Source: Polyangia bacterium (GTDB lineage: Bacteria > Myxococcota_A > Polyangia > JAAYKL01). From it: DNA of 64,000 bases. Position 1 is the first letter of the stretch. Every line of letters begins with the position of its first letter. Shown here in pieces: positions 2,253 to 61,599 of this stretch. Position numbers and translations under genes: made by a program. The stretch spans positions 10,178-74,177 of the forward strand of contig JAWOBP010000186.1 in assembly GCA_046484285.1 (NCBI GenBank). The letters run 5' to 3'. Below the pieces are notes generated by a model. That model made no database searches. It saw only the letters and a program-made list of their open reading frames with translations, and had not been told where the DNA came from.

Positions 2253-2657
2253 TCAGGCATCGTGACGGTCGAGATGCTCCGTTGCTCCGTGAATGGGGAT
2301 TCCCTGGTACGAGCCGAGAGCCTTCAGGTGGTGGTCGCCCGAGACGATTACATCGGCTCGACCCTTCACGGCACAGGCGAGCACCACGTCGTCGTCCGGA
2401 TCCTCCGCGATGACAGCCGGTACCAGGCCGGGTTCGGCACGATCGGCGATCTGGAGCAACTCAGAGGTGATCATCCGAGCCTCTCGCTCAAAGAAGCCGA
2501 ACCTGGGGCGGGCGAGGACCGCTTCGATCTCGGCGACGAGAGCGGAGCAGGTCACGAGCAGATCCTGGCCCCTGATGCACCGTCCGAGGACCGCGCGCGG
2601 TTTGCCGCCGAACACCACCGCGGAGACGATGACGTTCGTGTCGAGCACGACCCTCAC
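2253..2657 (-). CDS. PIN-domain toxin of type II TA module
   Basis: 134 aa, MRVVLDTNVIVSA... with the acidic residues typical of PIN nucleases (D6, E43-like, D98-like); start overlaps upstream antitoxin stop by 4 nt (ATGA). Confidence 0.8.
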   Translation of the reverse strand: MRVVLDTNVIVSAVVFGGKPRAVLGRCIRGQDLLVTCSALVAEIEAVLARPRFGFFEREARMITSELLQIADRAEPGLVPAVIAEDPDDDVVLACAVKGRADVIVSGDHHLKALGSYQGIPIHGATEHLDRHDA

Positions 2658-21244: not shown

Positions 21245-22498
21245 TCACTCCTCCGGCGGAAGGTTCTCCATCTCGCCGCGGGCCCGCGCGTTCCACTGCG
21301 GGTACTCGGCCAGCAGCTCGAGCGTTTCCCTGGCCCGATCGATCCTGCCCAGTCGCCGGTAGCAGCTCGCCGCCTCCCACAGAACCCGCGGGCGCTTCGA
21401 GTAGCCGGGGTGCTCGTCGAGCAGCTTCTCGTAGCGGCCCACCGCCTCGCCGCAGCGTCCGCTCCGGCGCTGGCAGCCGGCGATGTGGTGCAGCGCGGCG
21501 GCGACCCGATGTGGTGCGGCGCCCGGCGTGGAGAGCACGCGCTCCAAAAGGCGCGTGGCGGTTTCACAGTCTCCGCGATCGTAGGCCGAGATGCCTCGCG
21601 AGAAGAAAGAGGCGGCACCGTCTCCGACCATTCCCAAAGAACCGGCGCCCGGCGCTGCCTGCCGCTCGGCCCGGGCCGGGCCCGATGCGGCCGAGCCCGA
21701 AAGATCGTCGCTCTCCTCGAGGGCGTCGTCGAGAGCGGCCGCGGCGGATTTCTTCGATTCGAGAGCCTGCTCAGACTCGCGGCGCCTGGAGTCGGCCGCG
21801 GCGGTTTCGTCGACGGTTTGCGAGGCGGGACCGCTCGTGCCGATCCCGCTTCCGGGGCGTTCCATTCCGCCTTTCGCGCGACCGCCGCCGCCGCGACCCG
21901 TGCCCAGCGGTGCCGCCGGCGCCGGCTCGCTCTCCGCCGTTCGGACCGGTCGGCCAGCCTCTCGTCTCTCTTCGGCCTCGCCGTCCGGCCTCTCCGCCGT
22001 CGAGCGCGCCACCGGCACCGCCGGGCCGCGGAACGGAGCGCCCGAGCTCTCAACCTGCTCGAGGTCCGGCGGCGCGGACGACTGTCGAAAGACGGCGAAG
22101 GTGACGGCGAACACCACGGCCGCCACACCCGCCGTGACCAGCGCCGGCCGCAGCAGCACTCCCGCGATCCGCTCCAGCAGCCCCGCTCGCCTTTCCGGGG
22201 CGTGCGCGAGCTCTCCGATCGAGTCCGAGCTCGAGCGGATCTCTTCGGATGATTCGCGCTGCCTGTCCGCCGTCCGGGCGGCCAGCTCCAGGATCCGCTC
22301 GTCTCCGCTCGGGTCGTAGTCGGGGCGGGGCAGCTGGGCCGCCAGCTTGCGCGTCAGCAGTATCTCCTCGAGCGACGACCGGCAGGCCTCGCAGTCCGCC
22401 GCGTGGCGGCGAAGCCGATCGGCCTCGGCGTCGTCGAGCTCGCCGTACGCCAGCTCGAGCAGCTGGTCAGAAAACCGTTCGCAGTCGTCGGCGCTCAT
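21245..22498 (-). CDS. anti-sigma factor: zinc-finger (HxxxCxxC) N-domain, one TM helix, periplasmic TPR-containing domain
   Basis: MSADDCERFSDQLLELAYGELDDAEADRLRRHAADCEACRSSL; TM LVTAGVAAVVFAVTFAVF; ATGA overlap with sigma gene stop. Confidence 0.65.
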   Translation of the reverse strand: MSADDCERFSDQLLELAYGELDDAEADRLRRHAADCEACRSSLEEILLTRKLAAQLPRPDYDPSGDERILELAARTADRQRESSEEIRSSSDSIGELAHAPERRAGLLERIAGVLLRPALVTAGVAAVVFAVTFAVFRQSSAPPDLEQVESSGAPFRGPAVPVARSTAERPDGEAEERREAGRPVRTAESEPAPAAPLGTGRGGGGRAKGGMERPGSGIGTSGPASQTVDETAAADSRRRESEQALESKKSAAAALDDALEESDDLSGSAASGPARAERQAAPGAGSLGMVGDGAASFFSRGISAYDRGDCETATRLLERVLSTPGAAPHRVAAALHHIAGCQRRSGRCGEAVGRYEKLLDEHPGYSKRPRVLWEAASCYRRLGRIDRARETLELLAEYPQWNARARGEMENLPPEE

Positions 22499-41665: not shown

Positions 41666-41914
41666 ATGTCAGTAGCTACCATGACGAGCAAAGGGCAGAT
41701 AACGGTACCTCGGGCGATCCGAAAGCGACTGGGTTTGAGGCCCGGTGACAGGCTGGATTTCGTGATCGAGCGGGACGGCAGGATCCTGATCAACCCCGAG
41801 AACAAGCGATTGGAGGATGTTTTCGGTCTTCTCGCTCATCGGGCGGGGCGCGCCGTGTCGGTGGAGGAGATGGACGAGCGTGTGGCCGCGCGAATGCGCG
41901 AGGATAGGCAGTGA
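41666..41914 (+). CDS. vapB: AbrB/MazE/SpoVT-family antitoxin (VapB-like)
   Basis: MSVATMTSKGQITVPRAIRKRLGLRPGDRLDFV (swapped-hairpin signature). Confidence 0.75.
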   Translation: MSVATMTSKGQITVPRAIRKRLGLRPGDRLDFVIERDGRILINPENKRLEDVFGLLAHRAGRAVSVEEMDERVAARMREDRQ

Positions 41915-42315
41915 AGGCTCTCGATACCAACATTCTGGTTCGCCTCCTCCTCGACGACGATCCGGCTCAGAGCAAGACGGTTCGTCGTCTGTTCCAGACG
42001 GCGGAGCAAAACCGATCGAAGCTGCTCGTTTGCGATCTGGTGGTGCTCGAGCTGATCTGGGTGCTCGAGGCGGTGTACGGTTGCACGAGAGACGAGGTGG
42101 TCTCGGCCCTGGAGAGCCTTCTTTCGTTGGCGGTCCTGGAGTTCGAGCACGCGGACAGGTTACGCGAGCTCGGCTTGTTGGCCAGACAAGAGAAGACAGA
42201 GCTGGCGGACCTGCTGCTAGGGATTGCCGGCAGGCATGCCGGGGGTGAGACGACGCTCACATTCGACAAGCGCGCGAGTCGGTCCGAGCTCTTTGCCGCC
42301 GCCTCTTCCGGATGA
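41911..42315 (+). CDS. vapC: PIN-domain toxin (VapC-like)
   Basis: MKALDTNILVRLLLDDD...; ATGA-type overlap with vapB. Confidence 0.8.
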   Translation: MKALDTNILVRLLLDDDPAQSKTVRRLFQTAEQNRSKLLVCDLVVLELIWVLEAVYGCTRDEVVSALESLLSLAVLEFEHADRLRELGLLARQEKTELADLLLGIAGRHAGGETTLTFDKRASRSELFAAASSG

Positions 42316-42394
42316 AGGCGAACCGTTCTTGCAAGTCGGAGCTTGACGTTCAACGAGCTTTGAGGCTATTGGCCGGTGTTGCTCTTTTTCAATT

Positions 42395-42590
42395 TTTGCC
42401 GTCGGGCAAGGGTGGATAACCGCCCTGGGAAGCCGGTGCGAATCCGGCGCGGCCCCCGCCACTGTGACCGGGGACGAAAACGGCGAGACCACTGGACGGA
42501 AACCATCGCTCGAGCGGGTGGGCCGTCTGGGAAGGCGCCGCGAGTAGGACGATCCGGAAGCCAGGAGACCTGCTCGTCGGCACCTCGAGT
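42395..42590 (+). ncRNA. cobalamin (B12) riboswitch
   Basis: Contains hallmark blocks GGGAAGCCGGTGCGAATCCGGCGCGGCCCCCGCCACTGTGA, GGGAAGGCG and B12 box GCCAGGAGACCTGC; lies in the 5' leader of 42733 gene. Confidence 0.8.
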
Positions 42591-42732
42591 CCGCGGGGTG
42601 TGCGGCTTCACGGTTCCCCGGCGTCGTCCTTGGAAGCGGCGTCCGAGACGCTCTCTTGCAGGTTCGAGGAAAAACCAGCCCGGCTCCGGTGCGGGATACG
42701 GGCGAAAGAGAGGGGAACCCGGAGGTGCTTCC

Positions 42733-43080
42733 ATGAAGACTCAAAAGCTGTTCCTGTTTTCGTTGCTGATGATGCTGGCGGTCACCGCTGCCGCCTGCTC
42801 GGACGACGACGACGACGACGGTTCCGGTTCCGACGCGGACACCGACGCGGACACCGACGCGGACACCGACGCGGACACGGACGCGGACACGGACACCGAC
42901 ACGGACACCGACACGGACACCGACACCGACACGGACACGGACACCGACACCGACACGGACACGGACACCGACACCGATACGGACACGGACACCGACACGG
43001 ACACCGACACCGATACGGACACGGACACCGACACCGATACGGACACGGACACCGACACCGATGGCGACGCCGGACCGTAA
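42733..43080 (+). CDS. mini-lipoprotein consisting of lipobox plus (Asp-Thr/Asp-Ala)n tail only
   Basis: MKTQKLFLFSLLMMLAVTAAAC-SDDDDDDGSGS(DADT)n(DTDT)n...GDAGP; GGAGGT RBS; downstream of B12 riboswitch. Confidence 0.55.
   Translation: MKTQKLFLFSLLMMLAVTAAACSDDDDDDGSGSDADTDADTDADTDADTDADTDTDTDTDTDTDTDTDTDTDTDTDTDTDTDTDTDTDTDTDTDTDTDTDTDTDTDTDTDGDAGP
42826..43070. repeat. tandem 12-bp-periodic GACACC/GACGCG/GACACG repeat (coding for DT/DA repeats)
   Basis: Read directly; same repeat family recurs at 48780-48960, 54610-54800, 60240-60330. Confidence 0.8.
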
Positions 43081-50978: not shown

Positions 50979-51449
50979 TCAGTCGGCCAGGACCTGCTCG
51001 ATCGCCAGCTCTCCCAGGCGCGGCAGGCGAGCGGCGACGAGGTCGGAGAGCTTTTCTCCGATCTCGACCCGCAACGGCTCGATCCCGACCACGGTGGTGC
51101 GGGGACGGCGGCCGACCAGCTCGACGAAGTGCAGGATCTCGAGGATGCCGACCTGGTGCAGCGAGGTCTGGTAGCGGTCCGGCGCGGCGGTGACGTCCTC
51201 GGCCTCGAAGCGGTAGATCGTTCCGGGCTCCTCGCCGCCGCGCACGCAGTCGATCACCACCAGCCGATCCTGCTCGGCGACGATGTCCATCAGTCCGAAG
51301 CCCTCGATTCCGCCGTCGAAGAGGCTGATGCCCGGCGGCGCTCCCGAGCGTTCCAGGCGGCGCACGGCGTGCACTCCGGCGCCCTCGTCGCAGAGCAGAA
51401 CGTTTCCCACGCCGAGGATGCCGCGGCGTTGCTTGGGTCGGTCGCTCAT
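50979..51449 (-). CDS. hupD: [NiFe] hydrogenase maturation endopeptidase (HyaD/HupD/HynC family)
   Basis: GVGNVLLCDEGAGVHAV N-terminus and overall 156-aa length typical of the family. Confidence 0.8.
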   Translation of the reverse strand: MSDRPKQRRGILGVGNVLLCDEGAGVHAVRRLERSGAPPGISLFDGGIEGFGLMDIVAEQDRLVVIDCVRGGEEPGTIYRFEAEDVTAAPDRYQTSLHQVGILEILHFVELVGRRPRTTVVGIEPLRVEIGEKLSDLVAARLPRLGELAIEQVLAD

Positions 51450-51471
51450 GACAGGAGAGCCTACCTCGAGA

Positions 51472-53037
51472 TCAGGTTCCGGTCACCGGGTCGACCACGT
51501 AGCGCCTCAGCTCGTTGGTGCGGGGGTGGATCATGTGGATCGCGCAGGCCAGGCAGGGATCGAAGGAGCGCACCACGCGCACCACGTTGATCGGGTTGTC
51601 CGTGTCGGGCACCGGGATCCCGATCAGCGACTCCTCGTATTGCCCGCGCACCCCGGACTCGTCGCGCGGAGAGGCGTTCCAGGTGGAGGGCACCACCGCC
51701 TGGTAGCGCTTGGTCTTGCCGCCCTCGATCGTTATCCAGTGACCGAGCGCGCCGCGCGGAGCGTCGTAGAAGCCGGCTCCCTCGCCCTTGTCCGGCGGAT
51801 CCCAGTGCTGCGTGTCGTGGATTTCGAAGCCCTTCTTGCCCATCTGGGATTCGAGCTGGTCGAGCCAGCCCTGCATCGCCTCGACCAGCAGCAGGTTCTC
51901 GAAGGCGCGGCTGGCGTGGCGCGCCACCACGCCCGGCTTGGCGCCTTTCTCGACCAGGCCCATCAGGTCCTTGTTCTTCATCACCAGCATCCGTGCCAGG
52001 GGACCGACCTCCATCGGCTTTCCGTCGTAGCGCGGCGCCTTGACGAAGCTGTAGGCGTTCTCCCTGTCGCGGTTGACTTCCTGCGTTCCCCGCGAGGGGT
52101 GGACCGGGTCCGCCTCCTCGTACCAGGCGTGCTCCACCGACTCGGTGATCTTCTTCTGATCGAACTTCCCTATCTTGGCCAGATCGCCGGTGATCACGCC
52201 CGGAGTGAAGAACGGATCGCCGCCGTCCTTCTGGTCGAACGCTCCGTAGGCCAGGTAGTTGGGATGTCCCTTGCCGAAGCCACTTTTTGCCAGCCCGAAG
52301 AGCGGGCCGGTGCCCAGCGCCACGACGTCCTTGGCGTAGACGTCGCGGGTGAAGGCGGCCGCCTTTGCGAGCAGCTCGCGGAACTGCTTGATCCGATCCT
52401 TGGTCGGGAGCTGGGTCACGCCGCCGGGCACGATGCTCTGGTAGTGCGGTGCGCGCCCGCCGAAGATCGCGCCCATCTTCTTGCAGAGCATCTGCATCTC
52501 GAGTGCGTCGAGGTAGTGCTTGACCAGCGTGGTGACCGTCTCCGGGTCCTTGACGCAGTGCTCGTCGGGCTCGTAGCGCGGCGTGAGCGGATGGGTGTCC
52601 TTGCTCTCGACCAGCGCGACGATCTTTTTCTTGACCGCCTCGAGCTTGGGATCCTTGCCCTTGTAGTCGGCGACCGCCATCACGTCGATGTAGTCGAGCG
52701 CCGAGAGGTGGTAGAAGTGCAGGATGTGGTCGTAGAGGTACTGGGCGCCCATCACCAGGTTGCGCAGCAGGCGTCCACCGCTCGGCACCTCGGCGCCGAA
52801 CGCCGAGTCGAGCGCCAGCGAGGACGCCATCGTGTGCACGCTGAAGCAGACGCCGCAAAAGCGGCTGGTCACGTAGGCGGCGTCGCGAGGATCCTTGCCT
52901 TCCAGCATCTTCTCGAAGCCGCGGTACATCGTGCCACTGCTCCAGGCGTCCTTGACCTTGCCGTCCTCCACCTCGACCTCAATGCGGAGATGGCCCTCGA
53001 TGCGCGTTACGGGGTCGATTGCGATCTTCTGGCTCAT
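51472..53037 (-). CDS. [NiFe] hydrogenase large subunit
   Basis: N-terminal SRFCGVCFSVH (RxCGxC) and C-terminal DPCLACAIH nickel-binding motifs; ATGA overlap with small subunit. Confidence 0.9.
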   Translation of the reverse strand: MSQKIAIDPVTRIEGHLRIEVEVEDGKVKDAWSSGTMYRGFEKMLEGKDPRDAAYVTSRFCGVCFSVHTMASSLALDSAFGAEVPSGGRLLRNLVMGAQYLYDHILHFYHLSALDYIDVMAVADYKGKDPKLEAVKKKIVALVESKDTHPLTPRYEPDEHCVKDPETVTTLVKHYLDALEMQMLCKKMGAIFGGRAPHYQSIVPGGVTQLPTKDRIKQFRELLAKAAAFTRDVYAKDVVALGTGPLFGLAKSGFGKGHPNYLAYGAFDQKDGGDPFFTPGVITGDLAKIGKFDQKKITESVEHAWYEEADPVHPSRGTQEVNRDRENAYSFVKAPRYDGKPMEVGPLARMLVMKNKDLMGLVEKGAKPGVVARHASRAFENLLLVEAMQGWLDQLESQMGKKGFEIHDTQHWDPPDKGEGAGFYDAPRGALGHWITIEGGKTKRYQAVVPSTWNASPRDESGVRGQYEESLIGIPVPDTDNPINVVRVVRSFDPCLACAIHMIHPRTNELRRYVVDPVTGT

Positions 53038-54050
53038 GCCGCACTCTCCTTCTTGTTGTTGATGAGATGAAGGTTATTCGCGTACAGCGGCGAGTGTTTC
53101 TCGTAGAAGGTCGGCTCGGCGCATCCCTGGCACGGAGAGCCGCACTCGATGCAGTAGTTGACGCCCCCGTTGTACTTCCTGGTTGGGCAGTCCGAGTAGG
53201 TCTCGCCTCCCTTGCAGCCCTTCTCGGCCAGGCACCACTCGGCCTGCTTGGGGTCGTTCCAGTCTTGCAGGTAGTTGCCCTCGTCGTAGTGCTTCTTGCG
53301 CTCGCACTGGTCGTGGATCGTCTTGGCGTAGAACATCTTGGGCCGGCCGTGCTCGTCCAGCGGCGGCGCCTTTTCGTTGGTCAGGTAGTAGACCAGGGTC
53401 TGCACCAGGTGATCGTGGTGTGCCGGGCACATCGGCAGGTTGATCACCGGCTTGTCCTTCACCATCTGGTTCACGCCCATTCCGCGGCTCGGCGTGGCGC
53501 CCGGAATGCCGCCGTAGGTCGCGCAGGCTCCGAGGGCCACGATCGCCGAGGCCTGCTCGGCGCACTCGAGCACGATCTTCTCGAAGGGCTTGCCGCCCAC
53601 CGTGCAGAAGCGGTCGTCGGCGCCGGGGATCGATCCCTCGACCACCAGGATGTAGCCGCCCTCGGCCAGCGTGTTTTCCAGCGCCTTCTCGCTGACGTGA
53701 CCGGAGGCGGCCATCACCGCCTCGTGGTAGCGAAGCGAGATCTTGTCCAGCAGGATCTCGGCGATCGGCGGGTCCTCGGCATTGAGGAACGAGATGCTGC
53801 AACCCGCGCAGTCCTGCCCCTGGAGCCAGATCACCGGCGGCTTGCCCGCGGCCTTCTCCAGCTTCTCGGCCACCTTCTCGGCGCTCGGGCCTTTCTTCTT
53901 CTCGTCGCCCGGCGCGCCCTCATCGTCGCCTCCGCAACCGACTAGCGCCAGCGATCCGGCCAGCCCGCCGCAGTAGTAGAGGAAGTCCCGCCGCGAGACA
54001 GAGCCGAAGACCAGCTTTTCACCGTCGTGCTCTTTTTTCTTGCGCCCCAT
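53034..54050 (-). CDS. [NiFe] hydrogenase small subunit with Tat signal peptide
   Basis: SRRDFLYYCGGLAGSLALVGC twin-arginine leader; FeS-cluster Cys ligands (GCSISF..., CIECGSPCQGC). Confidence 0.85.
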   Translation of the reverse strand: MGRKKKEHDGEKLVFGSVSRRDFLYYCGGLAGSLALVGCGGDDEGAPGDEKKKGPSAEKVAEKLEKAAGKPPVIWLQGQDCAGCSISFLNAEDPPIAEILLDKISLRYHEAVMAASGHVSEKALENTLAEGGYILVVEGSIPGADDRFCTVGGKPFEKIVLECAEQASAIVALGACATYGGIPGATPSRGMGVNQMVKDKPVINLPMCPAHHDHLVQTLVYYLTNEKAPPLDEHGRPKMFYAKTIHDQCERKKHYDEGNYLQDWNDPKQAEWCLAEKGCKGGETYSDCPTRKYNGGVNYCIECGSPCQGCAEPTFYEKHSPLYANNLHLINNKKESAA

Positions 54051-54139
54051 CTTTTTTCCTCCCGTGCGTCATTGTAGCTGTGTAGCTGTTCGTCGCTCAC
54101 CAGTAATAATAGATGGCAAGCACTATAGTATACAATTGT

Positions 54140-54190
54140 GAAAAATGAAACAGGAGAATGCGAGCCTTGCCCGGGCTGCTTGCGAGGAAG
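54140..54190 (-). terminator. candidate rho-independent terminator after lipoprotein gene / before hydrogenase promoter
   Basis: Minus-strand GC-rich inverted repeat (gcccgggc core) followed by U-rich tract (plus strand gaaaaatgaaa); sits in 170-nt AT-rich gap. Confidence 0.3.
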
Positions 54191-54219
54191 TGTAACAGGC
54201 TTGAGATAAAGAGTTTTTT

Positions 54220-54900
54220 TTACATCGGCATGTTCATGTTGAAGTCGATGCTGACCCCGGAGACATCGTTTCCGTCGTAGGTGAACTCCGGGCACTGGCC
54301 GGTGCCGAAGGCGACCGGGTCGCCCTGAGCCGGGCCGTCCGTGCTGCAGTCTCCGCCGGCCTCCTGCAGGAAGCCCGAAACCACGTAGGCCTCGTCCACG
54401 GTCAGCGCCTGCATGACGATGAACTCCATGTCGAACGGCTCGGGACCGCCTCCGGACAGGTCGAAGCCGGTCTCCTGGCCGCCGGCGAAGGTGGTGATCT
54501 GTCCCATGTTGGACATCGCGGGGCACTCGTCCGAGATCGCCAGGCAGAGAGTGCCGACTCCGTCTCCGCCGCTCGGGATGTCGGCGGACTGCGAGACCGT
54601 GCCCGAGACGTTGATTGTATCGAGCCAGGTTCCGGTCTCGGTGTCGGAGTCCGCGTCGGTGTCTGTGTCGGCGTCGGAGTCCGCGTCTGTGTCGGCGTCG
54701 GAGTCCGCGTCGGTGTCCGCATCGGCGTCGGTGTCGGCGTCGGTATCGGCGTCCGAGTCCGAGTCCGAGTCCGAGTCGGTGTCCGAGTCGGTGTCCGCGT
54801 CGGTACCGCCGCCGCTGTCGTCGTCGCCGCAGGTCGCGGTCCCGAGGGCGCACAGCGCCACGATTGCCAGCAGGGTGATCGATTTGGAGAGAATCTTCAT
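54220..54900 (-). CDS. lipoprotein with (Asp-Thr/Asp-Ser/Asp-Ala)n linker and C-terminal Cys-containing domain of unknown function
   Basis: [32 protein letters not shown](TDAD..)n; strong RBS GGAAGGAGGCGGAAG before ATG. Confidence 0.55.
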
Positions 54901-54983
54901 CTTCCGCCTCCTTCCATGGTGTTCACGGCCATTGTGAGTCTTTTTGATGAGAAGTACACCTTGAGACAAAAAAGGACGGACGA

Positions 54984-56045
54984 TCAGTGGGTATGGCAGA
55001 TGCGGCACATCTTGTGCGAGGTGCGCTCGCCGGCCGGAACGGGCGGGGTCCAGCCCGGAGGGTGCGGGTCGACGCCGCCGGTGCTGTGGCAGCGCAGACA
55101 GTTGGAGGCCGGGCCCTGGTCGTGGCAGGCGGCGCACTCGTTGATCCTGCGGCGCGCGGCCCTGCTGTGCGAGTCGGCCGCGCCCGGCGTCATCCAGCTC
55201 GGCGGATGCGGGTTGCGTCGGCCGAGCCGGCCGCCGACGCCGTGCTGCTCGTGGCACGAGGAGCACGACGATCTGCCGTGGCACTTCATGCAGCTCGTAT
55301 CGCCGGTCCGCGCCTCGAGCGAGTGGCGCGTCATCCAGTCGCCCTGGTGCATGAAGCTGCGGTCCACGCGCTCTGGAAAGCGCAGCGAGGGACGCTGGGT
55401 CATCGTGCGGGCGTGGCAATCGGCGCAGTAGGCCTGGTCGTGGCAGACCGCGCAGGTCTGCTCGCCGCCGGCCGCGGCCCTGGCGCCGTGGCGATCGAAG
55501 AAGCCCTTCTCGTGCGAGTAGATCTCGCCCGACGGCACGCGCTGGTAGAGGTCGAGGCGGTGGTGGCAAAGCTTGCAGTCGCCGGAATCGAGATCATCCT
55601 GGTGGCAGGTATTGCACTCGACGTGGCCGGGCAGCAGGCGGTTCTCCGGGGTAACGTCCACCGCGTGGGCGGCGTCGCCGTGGCAGTCGGCGCAGTCTCC
55701 CGAGCGCTCCTGGTGGAGCTGGTGCGAGAAGACCAGGTGCGTGGGCTCGAGCCGATCGTAGCTGTCGGGAGCGTCGGTGTTGGTGTGGCAGGTGCCGCAT
55801 TCCTCGGCGCTCTCCACGTCGTGGCAGTCCGCGCAGCCGGACATCGCGGGCAGCGCCTCGGCCTCGCGATCGACGTCCTCGGCGATCCCGGCGTGGCAGT
55901 AGTCGCAGTCGACCCCCATCTCGGAGTGCACGTGGTGGGAGAACAGGATCGTGTCCGGGGCGTCGCTGGTGGCCGCCGAGCACGCCACCACCGCGGCCGT
56001 GACGGCCGAGAGCAGCAGTCCCTTGTTGCGCGAGAGTCTTGTCAT
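54984..56045 (-). CDS. multihaem cytochrome c lipoprotein (13 CxxCH motifs)
   Basis: [22 protein letters not shown] lipobox; CDYCH, CADCH, CGTCH, CADCH, CNTCH, CKLCH, CAVCH, CADCH, CMKCH, CSSCH, CAACH, CLRCH, CRICH. Confidence 0.75.
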
Positions 56046-57574
56046 TGCTCGTACCCCCGCTCGACGAAGTTCACGTCGAAGTTGTAGCTGAGCTTTAGCA
56101 TTCCGCGGACCTCGTGCTCGGCGTAGGGAGTGATGCCGGCCGCCACCGAGCCGCCGGTCTCGATGGTCCCGTTGCCGTAGAACAGCCCCACGTCGCCCAG
56201 AAAGCCCAGGTCGGTGTTTTCGATCTTCTGGTCGTAGAGATCGAGATAGGCGTTGGCCGCTGCCCGCAGGCCGGGCAGGGCGATCGGCACGATCGCTCCC
56301 AGCCGCAGCGAGTGGGCACCCAGCTCGTCCTGTCCCAGGCGGTGGTAGTCGAGCCGCACCAGCCCGTCGTTCCTTTCTCCGTAGCGCAGCAGCGCGCCCG
56401 CTTCGATGTCGTAGCCCAGCTCGGTCTCGGCGCCGTACCCGCTGGAGCTCCCAGCGTCGAAGCGCTCCTCGACGTAGCTGTAGAAACGATGGTGATATCC
56501 GGCCGAGAAGCTCAGCCAGGCGAGCGGGTCGACCCGCACGGCGCCGCCCACCGAGTCGTACTCCTCCATCGAAAACACAGAGAAGATTGACATCTTGGAC
56601 AGGTAGAGGGTCGGATCCGCGTGCCGGTAGTCTGCGGCGATCGAGACCATCTCGTGAGGATAGAGGTCGACCGCGAAGTTCGCCTCCTGGAGGCGCTTGG
56701 CCACCAGGTCGAGCGCCGCGTTGCCGCTGGCGCCCAGCCAGCTGAGCGGAGTCACGTCGAGGTCGACGCCGAGCAGCTGCCTGTCTATTTCGTCGAGCTC
56801 GGTGACGTGCAGCATCGAGACGCCGGCCGAGATCTTGCCTGTCATGCGGTAGAAGACGCGGCCGCCGACCGCGTAGTCGCCCTCGCGCTCCCAGTCGCTC
56901 AGGCCTCCGCCGAAGTCGCCGTAGCTCGGGTTGGCCGGCTGCTCGCGGTACCACTCGGGTCCGAGGTAGGGAGAGACGACCAGCCCGCCGTGCGCCTCGA
57001 TCCCGAGGTGGATCGGCGATTCGTACGAGGCGTAGAGGCCGTCGATGTGCAATCCGCGCGTGGCGCCGGTGTAGATCTGCTGGCGACCCAGCCGGACGTC
57101 GGCCCCGTAGTCCCTGAACTGCACGTAGAGGTAGGTCGGGTCGGCGACCGCCCGCTGATCGAAATACACGTCGGCCAGATCGACTCCGGCCCACCCCTGG
57201 AAGTGGACCGACAGGCCCGGGTGACCCAGCTCGTCTGCGCGCAGCTGAACGGTCTCGTAGAAGGGGAAGACCTTCATCGACCGCACGCCGTAGGCGCCGC
57301 CGCCCAGGTTGCGCATCCGGGCGCGCCGGGTGAAGAACATCTCCGAGCGCAGGCTGCCCGAGACCATCGGCCTGGGAGCGTCCGGGTCGTAGGGCTCGGG
57401 CTCGACCTCGGGAGGATCGGAAGCCGGGTCGACCTCGTCGCCGCCGTCTTCGCCTTCGGCGTCGCCGGTCTCTTCCGTCGCCGCCTCTTCTGTCTCTTCC
57501 TCGTCTTCCGCCTGGGCAAAGACCGAGCCCGGGGACGCGACGAGCAGGCCGATGGAAATCAAAACGGCGCGCAC
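56042..57574 (-). CDS. outer-membrane beta-barrel (porin-like) protein with acidic N-terminal extension
   Basis: Signal peptide MRAVLISIGLLVASPGSVFAQA; Glu/Asp-rich approx 60 aa then beta-strand-rich body ending ...NFVERGYEQ; 4-nt overlap with cytochrome gene. Confidence 0.6.
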   Translation of the reverse strand: MRAVLISIGLLVASPGSVFAQAEDEEETEEAATEETGDAEGEDGGDEVDPASDPPEVEPEPYDPDAPRPMVSGSLRSEMFFTRRARMRNLGGGAYGVRSMKVFPFYETVQLRADELGHPGLSVHFQGWAGVDLADVYFDQRAVADPTYLYVQFRDYGADVRLGRQQIYTGATRGLHIDGLYASYESPIHLGIEAHGGLVVSPYLGPEWYREQPANPSYGDFGGGLSDWEREGDYAVGGRVFYRMTGKISAGVSMLHVTELDEIDRQLLGVDLDVTPLSWLGASGNAALDLVAKRLQEANFAVDLYPHEMVSIAADYRHADPTLYLSKMSIFSVFSMEEYDSVGGAVRVDPLAWLSFSAGYHHRFYSYVEERFDAGSSSGYGAETELGYDIEAGALLRYGERNDGLVRLDYHRLGQDELGAHSLRLGAIVPIALPGLRAAANAYLDLYDQKIENTDLGFLGDVGLFYGNGTIETGGSVAAGITPYAEHEVRGMLKLSYNFDVNFVERGYEQ

Positions 57575-57575
57575 G

Positions 57576-58145
57576 TCACACTCCTCCGTCGCCGGACGCG
57601 AGGTCCACGTTGCCGTTGAGGTGGATCTCGGAGCTCAGTCCGCCGTCCAGGTAGGCCGAGGCGTGGCAGCTCGCGCAAGCCGAGTCGTCGGGGTGCGGAT
57701 CGAGCGGGGGCAGCCCGTGGCAGTCGCCGCACGAGACCTGCTCGGTGTCGTCCCAGCGGGGCGCCGGGTTGCTTCCGCCGCTCAGCGTCCCGCCGTGGCA
57801 GTAGACGTTCACGCAGCTAGCACCGTCGAAGTACGGCTCGGCTCCGCCGGCCGTGGCCAGGCCGCCGTCGGCGAACACGACGTCGACCACCGCGTCGAGG
57901 TGATCCTGGGAGAACCACTCACCGGGAATCCGGTGGCAGTCCTCGCAGGTCATGCCCGGAGCGCCGAACGGGCCGCCGGTGCTCATGTGGAGCTGATGGG
58001 CTCCGGAATCGGGGTTCATCGAGTGGCACATCTCGCAACCGTCTCCGCCCGCGTCGCCCTCGTCGTCCCTGACTTGCAGGCAGGAAGTCGAGGCAATGCA
58101 TATCAATGCGATCGGTACCAAGCGCCATTGCTTTTCGGGGATCAT
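57576..58145 (-). CDS. secreted/lipoprotein multihaem cytochrome c (about 5 haem sites)
   Basis: MIPEKQWRLVPIALICIASTSC leader; CEMCH, CEDCH, CHGG, CGDCH, CASCH. Confidence 0.6.
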   Translation of the reverse strand: MIPEKQWRLVPIALICIASTSCLQVRDDEGDAGGDGCEMCHSMNPDSGAHQLHMSTGGPFGAPGMTCEDCHRIPGEWFSQDHLDAVVDVVFADGGLATAGGAEPYFDGASCVNVYCHGGTLSGGSNPAPRWDDTEQVSCGDCHGLPPLDPHPDDSACASCHASAYLDGGLSSEIHLNGNVDLASGDGGV

Positions 58146-58441
58146 CGGCCGGGACCTCCTGGGGCTTCGACCCGCGTGTAAACGCCGGTCTCTGACTGAT
58201 TTCTCCAGAGCGTCAACGCATGTTTTTTTTGTAACGGAGCACCGAACCGGGGCGAGTGTCGCCAATCCAGGCCACAAAATCAAGAGCTTGCTGACAAAAA
58301 GGGCAATATCAAACTGACTGAACGAAAACTAAAGATACAAATTCAATGTATACCATAAAAGTGCTGAATAGCCCATTCTATATTACACCAAACTACTGCT
58401 ATATAAGTTGTTGTCAATTGGCCAGTTTTTTACTTGAATTG

Positions 58442-58521: not shown

Positions 58522-60069
58522 ATGAATGGAGCAGGGAAATTGAAAAGAGTCTCGTTGCATTTGGTATTTTGGGCCTCGAACGCCTTTTTTCTGGCGGCCG
58601 TGCTCGCGATCGGTTGCGACGGCTCCTCGGGCGCCTCGAGCTCGGCCGACGCGGGCGACACGGACAGCCAGACGGACGGGGCCGACACCGAAGCGGCCGG
58701 CCCGTCAACCTGCCTCGAGTGTCACCTCGATGAAGATGCCCTGATCGCCAGCCTGGAGGCGGATCCGCTGCCCGAAGAGGAAAAGGAGGAGGAGGAATCC
58801 ACCGGCGAAGGGTGAGGCGGAGAGTTGCCTCCGTTGGAGGCATGGGAGAAGGTCCTGGTCTCCGAGGATTTCCTCGCGGATCGCCACTTCGCGGAGTTCT
58901 TCTTTTCGGACTGCACTTGGTGCCACGGCGGAGATGATTCCGCCGAGGCGCGCGCCGCGGCGCACGAGGGAATGGATCCCTACCCCTCGCTGGCCGACAG
59001 CGAGATGTGCGGCGGAGCCTGCCACGGCGACGAAACCGAGATGTTCCACACCGGCCTGCACTACGACAACCGCGGGATAGTCCACCCCGAGCGCAGCCAG
59101 ATCGCGCTGCGCGCCGGAGAGGAGACGCTGCCGGCGATCCAGGAGGCGCTCGGCAACCACTGCGCCGACTGTCACTCCAAGGCCTGCGGAGACTGCCACA
59201 TCACGCGGCCTCGCTACTCCGAGGGCGGGTTCGTCAAGGGGCATGTCTTCTATTCGACCCCCAAGGCGACGCTCAACTGCACCGGCTGTCACGGCAGCCG
59301 GGTCGAGAAGGAGATGCTGGCCAAGGGCGGGTTGGATTTCGAAGGCGAGGTGGTCGAGACGAAGTACGACGTGCACTGGAACCCGAACGCGATGTCGTGC
59401 GACGTGTGCCACGGGGGCCACGACGCCGACCTGGCCGAGGTCTACCACCGCTACGACCGGCCCGACGCCCCGCGCTGCGAGGACTGCCACCAGCAGCAGA
59501 TCACCGACGCGGGCAACCAGATGCACGCCGTCCACGCGCTGGCCGGAGGCGAGGCCCCGATGCTGCAGTGCCAGGTCTGCCACTCGCAGCCCTACAACAA
59601 CTGCCGCGGGTGCCACCTGAAGCAGTCCGAGCAGGGCAGCTGCTATTACGATCTCGACAAGTCGTGGTTCGATTTCAAGATAGGCAAAAATCCGCTCGAG
59701 AGCGCAGAGCGGCCGTACGACTACGTGGTGTTGCGCCACGTTCCGGTGGACCGCGACACCTTCTCGCACTACGGCGACGATCTGCTGACGAGGTTCGACG
59801 ATCTGCCCACGTGGAAGTACGCCACGCCGCACAACGTGATCAAGGAGATCGATGTCGACGGCGAGCCTCAGCCGCCGCCCCAGGCCAGGGGATGCAACAG
59901 CTGTCACGGGCACCCGGAGCTGTTCCTCACCGCCGAGGTGGTCGAGCAGGTGGATCCCGAAGAGCTCGAGGCCAACTCCGAGGTTATCGTGGACTCGATT
60001 CCCGGGCCACTCGAGGGAGACGGAGGGCCGGGGCCCGGTCCGGACGGCGGTCCGGACGGCGGGGTGTAG
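58522..60069 (+). CDS. multihaem cytochrome c lipoprotein (11 CxxCH) interrupted by a single in-frame TGA at 58813-58815
   Basis: ORF1 58522-58815 (signal + lipobox LAIGC, DS/DT linker, CLECH) and ORF2 58825-60069 (10 CxxCH, no signal peptide, TTG 'start') are in the same frame separated only by TGA; stable hairpin TGCCTCCgttGGAGGCA 11 nt downstream of the TGA. Confidence 0.6.
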
Positions 60070-60143: not shown

Positions 60144-61250
60144 ATGAAGAAGAGCTTTTTGTTGTGCTTGCTGGCTGTGGGACTGCTCGCGTTTCCACTG
60201 TTGACGGCGGGATGTGGCGACGATGACGACGGCGGATCCGGAGACGCGGACACGGACGCGGACACCGACGCGGACACGGACGCGGACACCGACGCGGACA
60301 CCGACGCGGACACTGATTCCGACTCCGACACCGACGGCGACGCCGACCTGCTGGGCGATGTGTTCGGTCCGCTCGACGGATATGTGGACGACGAAGAGAT
60401 CAAACCGGTGATCGCTCCCGATTCGATTTACAATGACGTGGTCGTGGGCGGCAGCGAGGACTACCAGCTGATCGACGTGCGCCCGGCGGACCATTTCTCC
60501 GGCGGCCACATCGAGGGCGCGGTCAACTTGCCGTGGGGAGAGGACTGGGCCACGAGCACGGTGCTCGACGAGATCGACGACTCGCTGGCGCAGGTCATCA
60601 TCTGTCACACCGGCCACCGGGCAAGCTACCTGACCGCCTATCTGCGCCAGCTCGGATACGACGCCTACGCGATGAAGTTCGGCATGATGGGCTGGACCGG
60701 CGACCTGGACGTGATCGGGCTCGACGCCACCTACTGCAGCAGCTCGGCTCTGCCCGGCGACTACGCCACGGTCAGCGAGGCGACCGAGGCTACGACCGGA
60801 GATCTGCCCACGATCGAGTCCGACAACAGCGGCGACGACCTGATCATGGAGCTGGCCGGAGCCTACTTCGGCCTCGATGGCCAGCCCCCGGTGGTCAAGC
60901 CCCCCGACATCTACAACGACGTGATCGTGGGCGGCTCCGAGGACTACTACATGGTCGACGTGCGCAAGGCCGAGCACTACGAGGCCGACCACATCGAGGG
61001 AGCGGTGAGCATTCCTTACGGCACGTGGAACGACGAGATCGTCCTCGAGTCCATTCCAATGGACAAGAAGATCGTGACGATCTGCTACACGGGCCACACC
61101 GCCAGCCAGATGGCGATGATCCTGAGCGAGGTGGGCTACGAGGCCTACGCGATGGCCTACTCGATGATGGGATGGCACTCGGACACCGAGATCATCGGCA
61201 GCGAGGGCATCTGCTCCTGCGACGCCGATTACCCGGTGGTGACCGACTGA
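60144..61250 (+). CDS. tandem-rhodanese (sulfurtransferase-like) lipoprotein with (DADT)n linker
   Basis: Lipobox LLTAGC; two rhodanese modules with active-site loops CHTGHRA and CYTGHTA. Confidence 0.7.
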   Translation: MKKSFLLCLLAVGLLAFPLLTAGCGDDDDGGSGDADTDADTDADTDADTDADTDADTDSDSDTDGDADLLGDVFGPLDGYVDDEEIKPVIAPDSIYNDVVVGGSEDYQLIDVRPADHFSGGHIEGAVNLPWGEDWATSTVLDEIDDSLAQVIICHTGHRASYLTAYLRQLGYDAYAMKFGMMGWTGDLDVIGLDATYCSSSALPGDYATVSEATEATTGDLPTIESDNSGDDLIMELAGAYFGLDGQPPVVKPPDIYNDVIVGGSEDYYMVDVRKAEHYEADHIEGAVSIPYGTWNDEIVLESIPMDKKIVTICYTGHTASQMAMILSEVGYEAYAMAYSMMGWHSDTEIIGSEGICSCDADYPVVTD

Positions 61251-61377: not shown

Positions 61378-61599
61378 ATGAAAAAGCTACTCGTCGGCTT
61401 GGCGGCTGTTTCCATGCTGGTCAGCACGGTCGTGATGGGCAGCGTCTCGCTGAACAAGCCCCACAAGGGGATGGAGGGCAAGGACGGCGACAAGATCAAC
61501 TGCGTCTATTGCCACAACAAGGCGGGCAACCCCAAGGAGGGCAAGGACTACGACAAGTACAAGAAGGGCCCGTACTGCAAGAAGAGCGGCTGCCACTGA
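61378..61599 (+). CDS. small secreted Lys-rich cytochrome c (CVYCH plus CKKSGCH sites)
   Basis: Signal peptide MKKLLVGLAAVSMLVSTVVMG; 73 aa; one CxxCH and one CxxxxCH. Confidence 0.5.
   Translation: MKKLLVGLAAVSMLVSTVVMGSVSLNKPHKGMEGKDGDKINCVYCHNKAGNPKEGKDYDKYKKGPYCKKSGCH

Follow-up and report, generated by a model that had tools for sequence, protein, structure and literature searches.

The locus analysed here raises the question of whether a TGA at 58813-58815 ends a short monohaem lipoprotein or is read as an amino acid within a single, much longer multihaem cytochrome. The window, by which we mean the whole 64-kb stretch of DNA that was analysed, contains one frame running from an ATG at 58522 to a TAG at 60067-60069, in which this TGA (codon 98) is the sole internal stop. 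We compared this frame, the codon and the RNA that follows it with relatives from a genome collection, and conclude that this codon almost certainly encodes a conserved selenocysteine (Sec) and is equipped with its own RNA hairpin, and that the two annotated open reading frames therefore constitute one 515-residue haem lipoprotein.

A single reading frame interrupted by one TGA

The features of the interrupted gene are as follows.

58522..60069, plus strand: lipoprotein multihaem cytochrome c of 515 residues with 11 haem motifs and a predicted Sec98 (single frame, comparisons)
58522..58617, plus strand: signal peptide with lipobox (…AVLAIG-C32), read from the translation
58711..58725, plus strand: haem-binding motif 1, CLECH, residues 64-68
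58804..58821, plus strand: conserved Gly-rich motif G-E-G-U-G-G around the predicted Sec
58813..58815, plus strand: predicted UGA selenocysteine codon (TGA in 79/79 informative loci)
58816..60066, plus strand: main body with nine CxxCH and one CxxxCH motif and a beta-rich C-terminal part, without a signal peptide
58826..58842, plus strand: SECIS-type hairpin with a 7-bp stem, a GUU loop and a 10-nt spacer after the UGA (pairing, covariation)

The protein sequence around the stop reads ...STGEG-TGA-GGELPPLEAWEKV..., and the layout first proposed for this locus, one frame split solely by the TGA with a lipoprotein signal and CLECH upstream, is confirmed. Ten haem motifs do follow the TGA as originally predicted, but not all of them are CxxCH: one is a CxxxCH (CGGACH, residues 163-168), at a site where relatives outside the clade carry CxxCH. 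Two close relatives, L089 and L090, likewise start with ATG and have a frame identical to that of the window gene. Lipoboxes also occur in other orthologues (LLLAGC, MGAC, LSGC), and a CxxCH(T/L)D..L motif lies upstream of the TGA in 76 selected loci.

The TGA is conserved across four phyla

The family comprises at least 533 species loci in the genome collection and 95 clusters at 50% identity (E<=1e-30). We examined the best 80 loci, of which 79 were informative. TGA occupied the same motif position in every one of these (79/79), and TAA or TAG in none, with the motif sEGEG-TGA-GG in 76 loci and variants of it in 3 more. These 79 loci are spread over Chloroflexota, Bacillota, Actinomycetota and 'Deltaproteobacteria' MAGs, and most members of the family as a whole belong to Anaerolineae, other Chloroflexota, Bacillota or Actinomycetota sampled from sediment, digesters and microbial mats; a scan of viral contigs found no relatives. 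In Thermanaerothrix, for example, the site peptide, with TGA read as U, is ...SESEGVG-U-GGDVAPLEPWEK. G-E-G-U-G-G is the best-conserved motif of the N-terminal region, which makes the earlier description of the Sec as lying in a linker misleading.

A hairpin downstream of the UGA is under selection at the RNA level

The hairpin TGCCTCC-GTT-GGAGGCA has its first paired base at the 11th nucleotide after the TGA. Folding of the downstream sequence, as proposed at the outset, returned this hairpin as the minimum-free-energy structure of both a 38-nt and a 25-nt segment (-11.5 kcal/mol). A 60-nt segment folds preferentially into a competing structure, which we set aside because it is not conserved. 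Judged from the window sequence by itself, the hairpin stands out only moderately (z = -1.3 for the 38-nt and -2.9 for the 25-nt segment); its significance derives from the comparative data.

The hairpin is kept in every TGA locus, with 93.3% of cells paired compared with 40-53% in slid controls. Pair 13-25 displays compensatory swaps (C-G in 39 loci, G-C in 36, a mismatch in 1), pair 12-26 occurs also as U-A, A-U and C-G, and covariation amounted to 0.200 versus 0.062, a level reached by 0/500 shuffles. Moreover, synonymous sites are frozen only inside the hairpin (CCT/GCT 76/76, CCG 71/71, TTG 70/70, GAG 75/75), at codons whose gene-wide frequencies are 13-52%, and the adjoining codons for E, K and V vary freely. 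The hairpin is also a clean case in which the structure of an RNA imposes coupled changes on the protein (LPPLEAW vs VAPLEPW). Among homologues with a sense codon at the TGA site it is broken or relaxed in 5 of 8, and it is retained in two TGT (Cys) forms and one Trp form (L083). The covariation, the frozen sites and the decay of the hairpin where a sense codon replaces the TGA together bear out the earlier suggestion of a possible SECIS. Rfam holds no family matching the hairpin, and over the whole window it reports a cobalamin riboswitch only.

The canonical bacterial SECIS, of the E. coli fdhF type, is a coding-region stem-loop directly after the UGA, and a minimal one starts about 11 nt after the UGA and has G/U in its apical loop. 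The hairpin here shares that placement, and its geometry fits the bacterial SECIS rules, with a 10-nt spacer, a G first in the loop and the loop 18 nt from the UGA. Unlike the fdhF-type element, it has a short, perfect stem of 6-7 bp, a 3-nt GUU/GGU loop and no bulged U. Since the hairpin is almost identical across four phyla, the data suggest that the gene and its SECIS spread together.

Residues replacing Sec, and the selenocysteine machinery

The orthologue alignment originally called for did reveal Cys or other sense codons at the site. Cys occurs often in divergent homologues, as GxGCGG or GECCGG; the 11 sequences with Cys, full-length homologues or representatives of clusters, are P0036, P0063, P0144, P0158, P0170, P0177, P0191, P0196, P0200, P0202 and P0218. 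Several other homologues carry Trp, Leu, Arg, His or Tyr, and in close homologues Trp is the most frequent of the sense replacements. These forms indicate that the protein can fulfil at least some of its role without the residue. A search for residues that co-vary with the loss of Sec found none.

A link to selenocysteine synthesis is provided by a Bacillota MAG (L005), in which the gene order is tRNA-Sec, selA, selB, LysR, cytochrome gene, rhodanese, selD. None of the ORFs scanned in the 64-kb window is a selA, selB or selD gene, and the window contains no tRNA-Sec, so that Sec machinery in the source organism is an assumption. The single ARAGORN call in the window, a 96-nt 'tRNA-Arg(gcg)', is probably false, as Rfam gives no confirmation of it.

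Selenocysteine recoding, the reading that the original prediction named first, is thus upheld by the conserved TGA, a hairpin under RNA-level selection, the Cys homologues and the sel neighbourhood. As a whole, we consider it very probable that UGA encodes Sec, that the hairpin is its SECIS and that the gene specifies a single exported 11-haem lipoprotein with Sec98. The UGA at 58813-58815 would be decoded as selenocysteine by means of the hairpin at 58826-58842, which as a bacterial SECIS would recruit SelB and Sec-tRNA(Sec). The predicted product is one exported, lipid-anchored cytochrome c of ~515 residues and 11 haems, with Sec lying in a flexible loop, G-E-G-U-G-G, that comes after haem motif 1 and before haem motif 2.

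Alternative readings of the TGA

The UGA might instead be read through by an ordinary tRNA (e.g. that for Trp), in a programmed or leaky manner, with the hairpin stimulating readthrough or pausing; the locus would then yield a short monohaem lipoprotein together with some full-length protein, and no selenium. Trp as the commonest replacement in close homologues, the hairpin kept in the Trp form L083 and a window lacking sel genes are all in line with this. However, frequent Cys in divergent branches is the classic Sec/Cys pattern, the L005 gene lies within a selC-selA-selB...selD cluster, the hairpin geometry conforms to SECIS rules, and the codon is TGA, never TAG or TAA, over four phyla. We regard ordinary readthrough as quite improbable.

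Gene callers and RefSeq annotate two genes (WP_315624466.1, 78 aa; WP_315624465.1, 368 aa), and taken at face value this would mean a monohaem lipoprotein ending at the TGA followed by a 10-haem protein starting at TTG 58825. Attachment of c-type haem needs export, yet the downstream part lacks a signal peptide in all orthologues, and two separate genes each with a signal peptide, the counter-case named at the outset, were seen in none. Furthermore, the supposed starts (GTG/TTG) lie inside the conserved hairpin, the two parts always share a frame with no spacer between them, and homologues with a sense codon at the TGA site are single full-length proteins of 467-514 aa. The earlier argument that the downstream part is functional only if fused is borne out as well. 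Two real genes are very improbable.

The original prediction had rated a sequencing error, a nonsense mutation and readthrough as equally possible with selenocysteine, a ranking that no longer holds. A sequencing or assembly error is excluded because the TGA recurs in two metagenome assemblies of a close relative that are independent of each other, and a fresh pseudogene because the TGA is conserved across four phyla, being found in 79 other species. The frame 58522-60069 has a GC3 of 0.89, and downstream of the TGA both GC3 and haem-motif conservation are intact; the presence of the stop codon is the one observation that these readings would explain, and we give them hardly any probability. 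A genetic code with TGA as a sense codon (Gly or Trp), to which the Gly codons flanking the TGA might point, was rejected as having virtually no chance of being correct on stop-codon usage, since TGA is the normal stop of ~37/46 window ORFs, including a Pfam-complete hydrogenase large subunit and RtcB, in a window of 61-71% G+C in which a scan found no other convincing in-frame TGA gene.

Partner genes

The genes surrounding the cytochrome gene include the following.

60144..61250, plus strand: partner lipoprotein with two rhodanese domains (Pfam PF00581, two stretches)
61378..61599, plus strand: secreted monohaem cytochrome of 73 residues (CVYCH; ORF list)
57576..58145, minus strand: divergent 5-haem lipoprotein cytochrome with four CxxCH and one CxxxxCH (TIGR01904/PF09698)
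56042..57574, minus strand: secreted protein of 510 residues with a signal peptide (ORF translation)
54984..56045, minus strand: lipoprotein cytochrome of 353 residues with 13 CxxCH
50979..54050, minus strand: [NiFe] hydrogenase small subunit, large subunit and maturation protease (Pfam)

The cytochrome gene and the two-domain rhodanese gene, whose active-site loops are CHTGHR and CYTGHT, are probably co-transcribed. In 71 of 89 sequences a rhodanese homologue is encoded no more than 8 kb away, and one sequence (P0184) is a natural cytochrome-rhodanese fusion. The gene for the 73-residue cytochrome, which has no family match in Pfam or NCBIfam, likewise comes next in L089 and L090, and homologues of the 5-haem lipoprotein cytochrome were found in L001 and L002. 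The 510-residue secreted protein has no Pfam or NCBIfam match either; its gene is flanked by those of the 5-haem and 13-haem lipoprotein cytochromes, its stop codon and the start codon of the following cytochrome gene overlapping in ATGA, and from this position it may possibly be the outer-membrane barrel of a porin-cytochrome (Pcc/Ext-type) conduit. The hydrogenase large subunit is of the Cys type (DPCLAC), and we rejected a NiFeSe hydrogenase as a second selenoprotein.

Family assignment and predicted function

A PDB sequence search with the fused protein gave 0 matches at E<=10, with 9wt8 and 9wt9 within the searched set. A PDB profile search reached only generic multihaem matches, e.g. UndA, NrfB, OcwA (6i5b) and NrfA, and did not reach 1sp3. 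NCBIfam and Pfam yielded no family model, only generic domains of the cytochrome c3/c7 type; NF040886 (MccSep / ExtKL) gave no match, nor did TIGR04315 (OTR family) even at E<=10. With no listing found, this multihaem cytochrome family is apparently undescribed as a selenoprotein.

We predicted a structure for the Cys-type homologue P0063 rather than for the window protein, and in this model the loop of the Sec site has moderate confidence (pLDDT about 75). By count only, 10 His outside the haem motifs are conserved, compared with 11 haem motifs, and one haem therefore probably lacks a His distal ligand; no Cys outside these motifs is conserved. Rather than a pure electron wire, the protein may be a multihaem enzyme with a catalytic function that belongs to the OTR/HAO structural class, in which case the Sec loop would serve the His-deficient haem as a nucleophile, or possibly as a ligand.

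To judge by the neighbouring genes and by analogy, the cytochrome likely works outside the cytoplasm as a reductase whose substrate, be it sulfane sulfur, polysulfide or selenium, would be delivered by the rhodanese. Electrons may come from quinol via NrfCD-type modules in Chloroflexota, and in this window from the adjoining porin-cytochrome-like genes and the [NiFe] hydrogenase.

A more specific proposal is that the Sec98 selenolate is the distal axial ligand of the haem without a conserved His, giving a natural His/Sec c-type haem, in which case the chemistry on rhodanese-delivered sulfur or selenium would occur at the selenolate ligand. His/Cys haems occur in TsdA, SoxA, DsrJ and MccSep, and His/Sec would be their selenium analogue; we know of no natural selenolate-ligated haem described so far. 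The 10 His for 11 haems, the lack of a conserved non-motif Cys and the Cys in divergent homologues are compatible with this ligation, whereas the variants with Trp, Leu or Arg speak against a ligand that the protein cannot do without, and we consider the proposal unlikely.

Discussion

The respiratory abilities of these groups of Chloroflexota, Bacillota and Actinomycetota are poorly understood. Every Sec member that we examined is publicly annotated as a 'hypothetical' protein of 75-100 aa plus a signal-less cytochrome, a split that conceals a selenoprotein and, with it, what is probably a terminal reductase acting on compounds of sulfur or selenium; the reconstruction of metabolism and the counting of selenoproteins in these phyla would therefore be affected. 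The TGA form is carried by Thermanaerothrix solaris (NZ_JAUHMF01) and T. daxensis, and with Thermanaerothrix strains in culture the prediction is open to direct testing.

Selenoproteins of the OTR family have been annotated in GenBank (TIGR04315; PMC13188914), WP_331457571.1 among them. Shewanella OTR (PDB 1sp3) has 8 haems compared with the 11 here, the match covers about half of the protein at only 18% identity, and the present protein additionally has an N-terminal lipoprotein extension with haem 1 and the Sec loop. In Wolinella, the rhodanese-type sulfur carrier Sud works with polysulfide reductase. Sud, ExtH (PMC5877670) and the rhodanese described here are each an extracytoplasmic rhodanese whose gene lies beside that of a terminal reductase, here a predicted one, acting on compounds of sulfur or selenium; unlike in the Sud system, the reductase here would be a haem selenoprotein and not a molybdoenzyme, and, in contrast to Sud and ExtH, the rhodanese is a lipoprotein with two domains and an active-site Cys in both.

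The closest parallel in kind is the Geobacter sulfurreducens protein MccSep / ExtKL (GSU2937-2936), a selenoprotein among the multihaem c-type cytochromes that reduces polysulfide and selenite (PMC13510729; PDB 9wt8, 9wt9). It was the first haem selenoenzyme to be characterised biochemically, in 2025-26. If our reading is correct, the family described here would represent a second type, unrelated to MccSep, richer in haems and widespread (at least 533 species). Each is an extracytoplasmic c-type multihaem protein carrying a single Sec, predicted in the present case, for which an in-frame UGA followed by a stem-loop codes. Both have been annotated as two genes, in the case of MccSep historically. 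The MccSep cluster, extHIJKLMNOPQS, includes the rhodanese-like gene extH (PMC13510729, PMC5877670) and codes for a porin-like protein and other cytochromes as well (PMC5877670), neighbours that resemble the rhodanese, cytochrome and possible porin genes found here. In each protein Sec resides in a Gly-containing flexible loop, D-G-U-P in MccSep and G-E-G-U-G-G here. The two nevertheless have no detectable sequence similarity. MccSep has 5 haems and the present family 11, and Sec follows all haems in a C-terminal Ig-like domain of MccSep but lies between haem motifs 1 and 2 here. MccSep also requires a conserved haem-ligating Cys239; in the present family no Cys outside the haem motifs is conserved. 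MccSep is soluble, periplasmic and tetrameric, whereas the window protein is a lipoprotein. Finally, MccSep occurs mainly in Desulfobacterota and Nitrospirota, and the family described here mainly in Chloroflexota, Bacillota and Actinomycetota.

An in-frame TGA conserved across the family

Translation of the multihaem cytochrome gene gave a single frame of 515 codons with one internal stop, and its GC3 of 0.89 matches that of the real genes of the window. The elements of the gene are as follows.

58522-60069, + strand: cytochrome frame
First 97 codons, + strand: lipoprotein signal, …AVLAIG-C32
Residues 64-68, + strand: haem motif CLECH, upstream of the TGA
58813-58815, + strand: in-frame TGA (codon 98)
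58826-58842, + strand: hairpin TGCCTCC-GTT-GGAGGCA, its first paired base the 11th nt past the TGA

The frame, TGA, lipoprotein signal and hairpin thus stand as originally described, and the haem count is amended: downstream of the TGA lie nine CxxCH motifs and one CxxxCH (CGGACH), not ten CxxCH. No signal peptide was found in the translated part 3' of the TGA, and TTG 58825 is the sole start codon close by. The genetic code is standard, since of 46 other ORFs predicted in the window about 37 terminate at TGA, some of them genes whose Pfam domains are complete.

Used as a protein query, the fused sequence returned more than 1100 relatives, most of them 360-390 aa long and starting exactly past the stop position (MAPLEPWEKV… or LEAWEKV…); roughly one in ten is 467-514 aa long, and these have a sense codon in place of the stop, along with haem 1 and a signal peptide. 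Scanning one genome per species turned up at least 533 relatives' loci, the best 80 of which were read. The site is present in 79 of these and is TGA in 79/79, within the motif s-E-G-E-G-TGA-G-G-x-(L/V)-(P/A)-P-L-E-(A/P)-W-E-K-V; one locus (L069) lacks the motif entirely, and another (L077) ends at a contig edge. In the 76 loci chosen for codon analysis, CxxCH is encoded upstream of the TGA in the same frame. Hosts of the best 80 loci are Chloroflexota (mainly Anaerolineae), Bacillota, Actinomycetota (Acidimicrobiia, Coriobacteriia) and two 'Deltaproteobacteria' MAGs, the latter being the nearest named relatives at 58-59% identity. A closer relative (about 90% amino-acid identity), recovered in two independent microbial-mat assemblies, has an identical ATG, TGA and hairpin. 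Sequencing error and recent nonsense mutation, both entertained in the original prediction, are opposed by these two assemblies and by the 79/79 informative loci: the TGA is conserved, and is therefore neither an error nor the mark of a pseudogene.

Two of three further TGA loci (L015 and L050, from long-read MAGs) have additional stops or breaks in the frame ahead of the TGA, within the N-terminal region, probably assembly indels rather than real disruptions.

A covarying SECIS-type hairpin

Of the folds open to the local 25-38 nt, the hairpin has the lowest free energy (-11.5 kcal/mol). Across 76 aligned TGA sequences, 93.3% of cells in the 7-bp stem were paired, versus 40-53% with the partner slid, and the covariation score of 0.200 (0.062 in shuffles) was reached by 0/500. 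Pair 13-25, counted from the UGA, is C-G in 39 sequences, G-C in 36 and mismatched in 1, while pair 12-26 is mostly G-C, with U-A, A-U and C-G also occurring. Codons +5 and +9 are correspondingly coupled, as Pro…Ala (LPPLEAW) in 39 loci versus Ala…Pro (VAPLEPW) in 36, with one mismatch, because the stem pair 13-25 swaps between C-G and G-C; this is a clear case of a protein motif shaped by RNA structure.

Synonymous sites were frozen solely within the stem-loop, codon choice being free at the conserved E, K and V of +11 to +13.

Table. Codon usage after the TGA in TGA loci (codon; count; gene-wide usage)
+5; CCT 40/40 or GCT 36/36; 13-15%
+6; CCG 71/71; 43%
+7; TTG 70/70; 20%
+8; GAG 75/75; 52%

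The spacer is 10 nt, the loop begins 18 nt past the UGA and the first loop base is G (GUU in 70, GGU in 6), a geometry that fits bacterial SECIS rules.

Replacement of the TGA by sense codons

Hairpin constraint is relaxed where the TGA is replaced, with an altered hairpin in five of eight sense-codon loci.

Table. Loci with a sense codon at the site (locus; codon; hairpin)
L081, L082; TGT (Cys); intact
L083; TGG (Trp); intact
L084; TGG (Trp); destroyed
L085; CGA (Arg); degraded
L086; CTG (Leu); loop G gone through synonymous changes
L087; TTG (Leu); stem broken by GAG to GAC
L088; TGG (Trp); broken

This is the expected look of a SECIS that would no longer be needed. The suggestion that a stem-loop 11 nt past the TGA might be a SECIS element is therefore borne out by covariation, frozen synonymous sites and decay without the TGA, and the hairpin appears to act like one.

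Aligning orthologues, as originally proposed, placed Cys at the TGA position in several homologues and other sense codons in others. Cys occupies it in the homologous proteins P0036 and P0063, and in the divergent 50%-cluster representatives P0144, P0177 (GECCGG), P0158, P0170, P0191, P0196, P0200, P0202 and P0218; in other divergent representatives the residue is Trp, Leu, His or Tyr, or the motif is missing. P0144 and P0177 carry a vicinal Cys-Cys (G-E-C-C-G-G) in place of G-E-G-U-G-G, an arrangement similar to that of thioredoxin reductase, whose redox tail is Gly-Cys-Sec-Gly. All haem ligands are kept in the Trp, Leu and Arg variants, which probably retain electron transfer alone.

TGA conservation, hairpin covariation and the Cys homologues together favour the recoding reading, and on this comparative evidence the UGA is very probably decoded as selenocysteine through the canonical mechanism of UGA plus SECIS. 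No sel genes or tRNA-Sec were found within the 64-kb window, so the Sec machinery of this organism is assumed. In a relative's locus, L005 (Bacillota MAG, JAMCWA010000094.1, 1184-12165), the order is tRNA-Sec, selA, selB, a LysR regulator (nearest NCBIfam model 'selenium metabolism-associated'), the cytochrome, a two-domain rhodanese, one ORF and selD, an arrangement in which the cytochrome-rhodanese pair could supply reduced selenium to SelD.

Protein family, gene neighbourhood and proposed role

The cytochrome matched only generic c3/c7 cytochrome domains in Pfam and no NCBIfam family model. An AlphaFold2 model of P0063, a Cys-type homologue, was confident (pLDDT 85, pTM 0.77) and placed the Sec-equivalent Cys116 within a coil of moderate confidence; a Foldseek search gave no matches. 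Because the family conserves 10 non-motif His for 11 haem motifs, one haem probably lacks bis-His ligation, and this haem may be the catalytic site; no non-motif Cys is conserved in the family.

50979-58283, - strand: [NiFe] hydrogenase (small subunit, Cys-type large subunit, protease) and cytochrome set
60144-61250, downstream of the cytochrome gene: two-domain rhodanese lipoprotein, loops CHTGHR and CYTGHT

Of 89 sequences, 71 have a rhodanese homologue no more than 8 kb away, and in P0184 the rhodanese is fused to the cytochrome; a LysR regulator adjoins in 49. Truncated family members (P0017, P0019, P0127 and others) are named 'thiosulfate/3-mercaptopyruvate sulfurtransferase' by JGI, probably by transfer from fusions such as P0184. 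Chloroflexota neighbours are NrfD, a 4Fe-4S protein resembling NrfC and a cytochrome of about 355 aa; together they form a quinol-oxidising module. The presence of ExbB and ExbD, together with a TonB C-terminal-domain match that is weak and below threshold, marks the window organism as diderm. Neighbours here are a 5-haem lipoprotein cytochrome (CxxxxCH/CxxCH), a secreted protein of 510 aa that matches no family, a 13-haem lipoprotein cytochrome whose start overlaps the 510-aa gene's stop as ATGA, and the [NiFe] hydrogenase operon; the set looks like a putative H2-fed porin-cytochrome conduit.

In the role we propose, the rhodanese would capture sulfane sulfur or selenium and pass it to the Sec loop as an Se-S or Se-Se adduct, and the haem chain would reduce that adduct, the Gly-rich loop serving the haem without bis-His ligation. 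We give this sulfur/selenium reductase route an even chance of being correct.

Other features of the window

2253-2657, - strand: PIN-domain gene
41666-41914, + strand: small ORF, possible antitoxin, ahead of the second PIN-domain gene
41911-42315, + strand: second PIN-domain gene
42387-42591, + strand: cobalamin riboswitch (96.5 bits)
About 42730-43080, + strand: small lipoprotein ORF (MKTQKLFLFSLL…AACSDDDDDD…) after the riboswitch

The small lipoprotein ORF is mostly a long (Asp-Thr)n repeat, with RtcB the next gene downstream. Lipoproteins of this organism have long acidic Asp-Thr or Asp-Ala-Asp-Thr linkers straight after the lipobox Cys, as at 60210-60340 and 42800-43060, and such repeats give rise to long ORFs on the opposite strand and in other frames that are spurious. 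A 96-nt tRNA-Arg(gcg) called by ARAGORN at 22091-22186 (- strand) is probably false, lying in a coding-like region with no Rfam tRNA at gathering score.

Comparison with known selenocytochromes

In the Geobacter cluster extHIJKLMNOPQS, genes for cytochromes and for one rhodanese-like and one porin-like protein accompany that of the Sec-cytochrome MccSep (ExtKL), a reductase of polysulfide and selenite (PMC5877670, PMC13510729), and the logic of the window cluster parallels it. MccSep nevertheless differs in haem number, Sec position, required Cys ligand and taxonomic range, and gave no match to the query at E<=10 in a PDB search that included its structure. A 2026 review of prokaryotic selenoproteins uses 'cytochrome' in two entries only, ExtKL and OTR-family (octahaem tetrathionate reductase) cytochromes, and its table also lists a CXXCH-containing GSU2204-family barrel protein; in family-model scans the GSU2204-family model did not match the window cytochrome, nor did the ExtKL and OTR-family models even at E<=10. 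No other Sec-cytochrome from Anaerolineae or with a rhodanese partner was found in the literature, and nowhere in the searchable literature is this cytochrome family recorded as one of selenoproteins. RefSeq splits the gene of cultured Thermanaerothrix solaris into 'hypothetical' proteins of 78 and 368 aa, and the one record found for T. daxensis is truncated, at 367 aa. What appears to be new is the family itself, a lipid-anchored selenoprotein with 11 haems, possibly OTR-like, whose Sec loop is N-terminal and whose rhodanese partner seems obligate; it is widespread and systematically mis-annotated.
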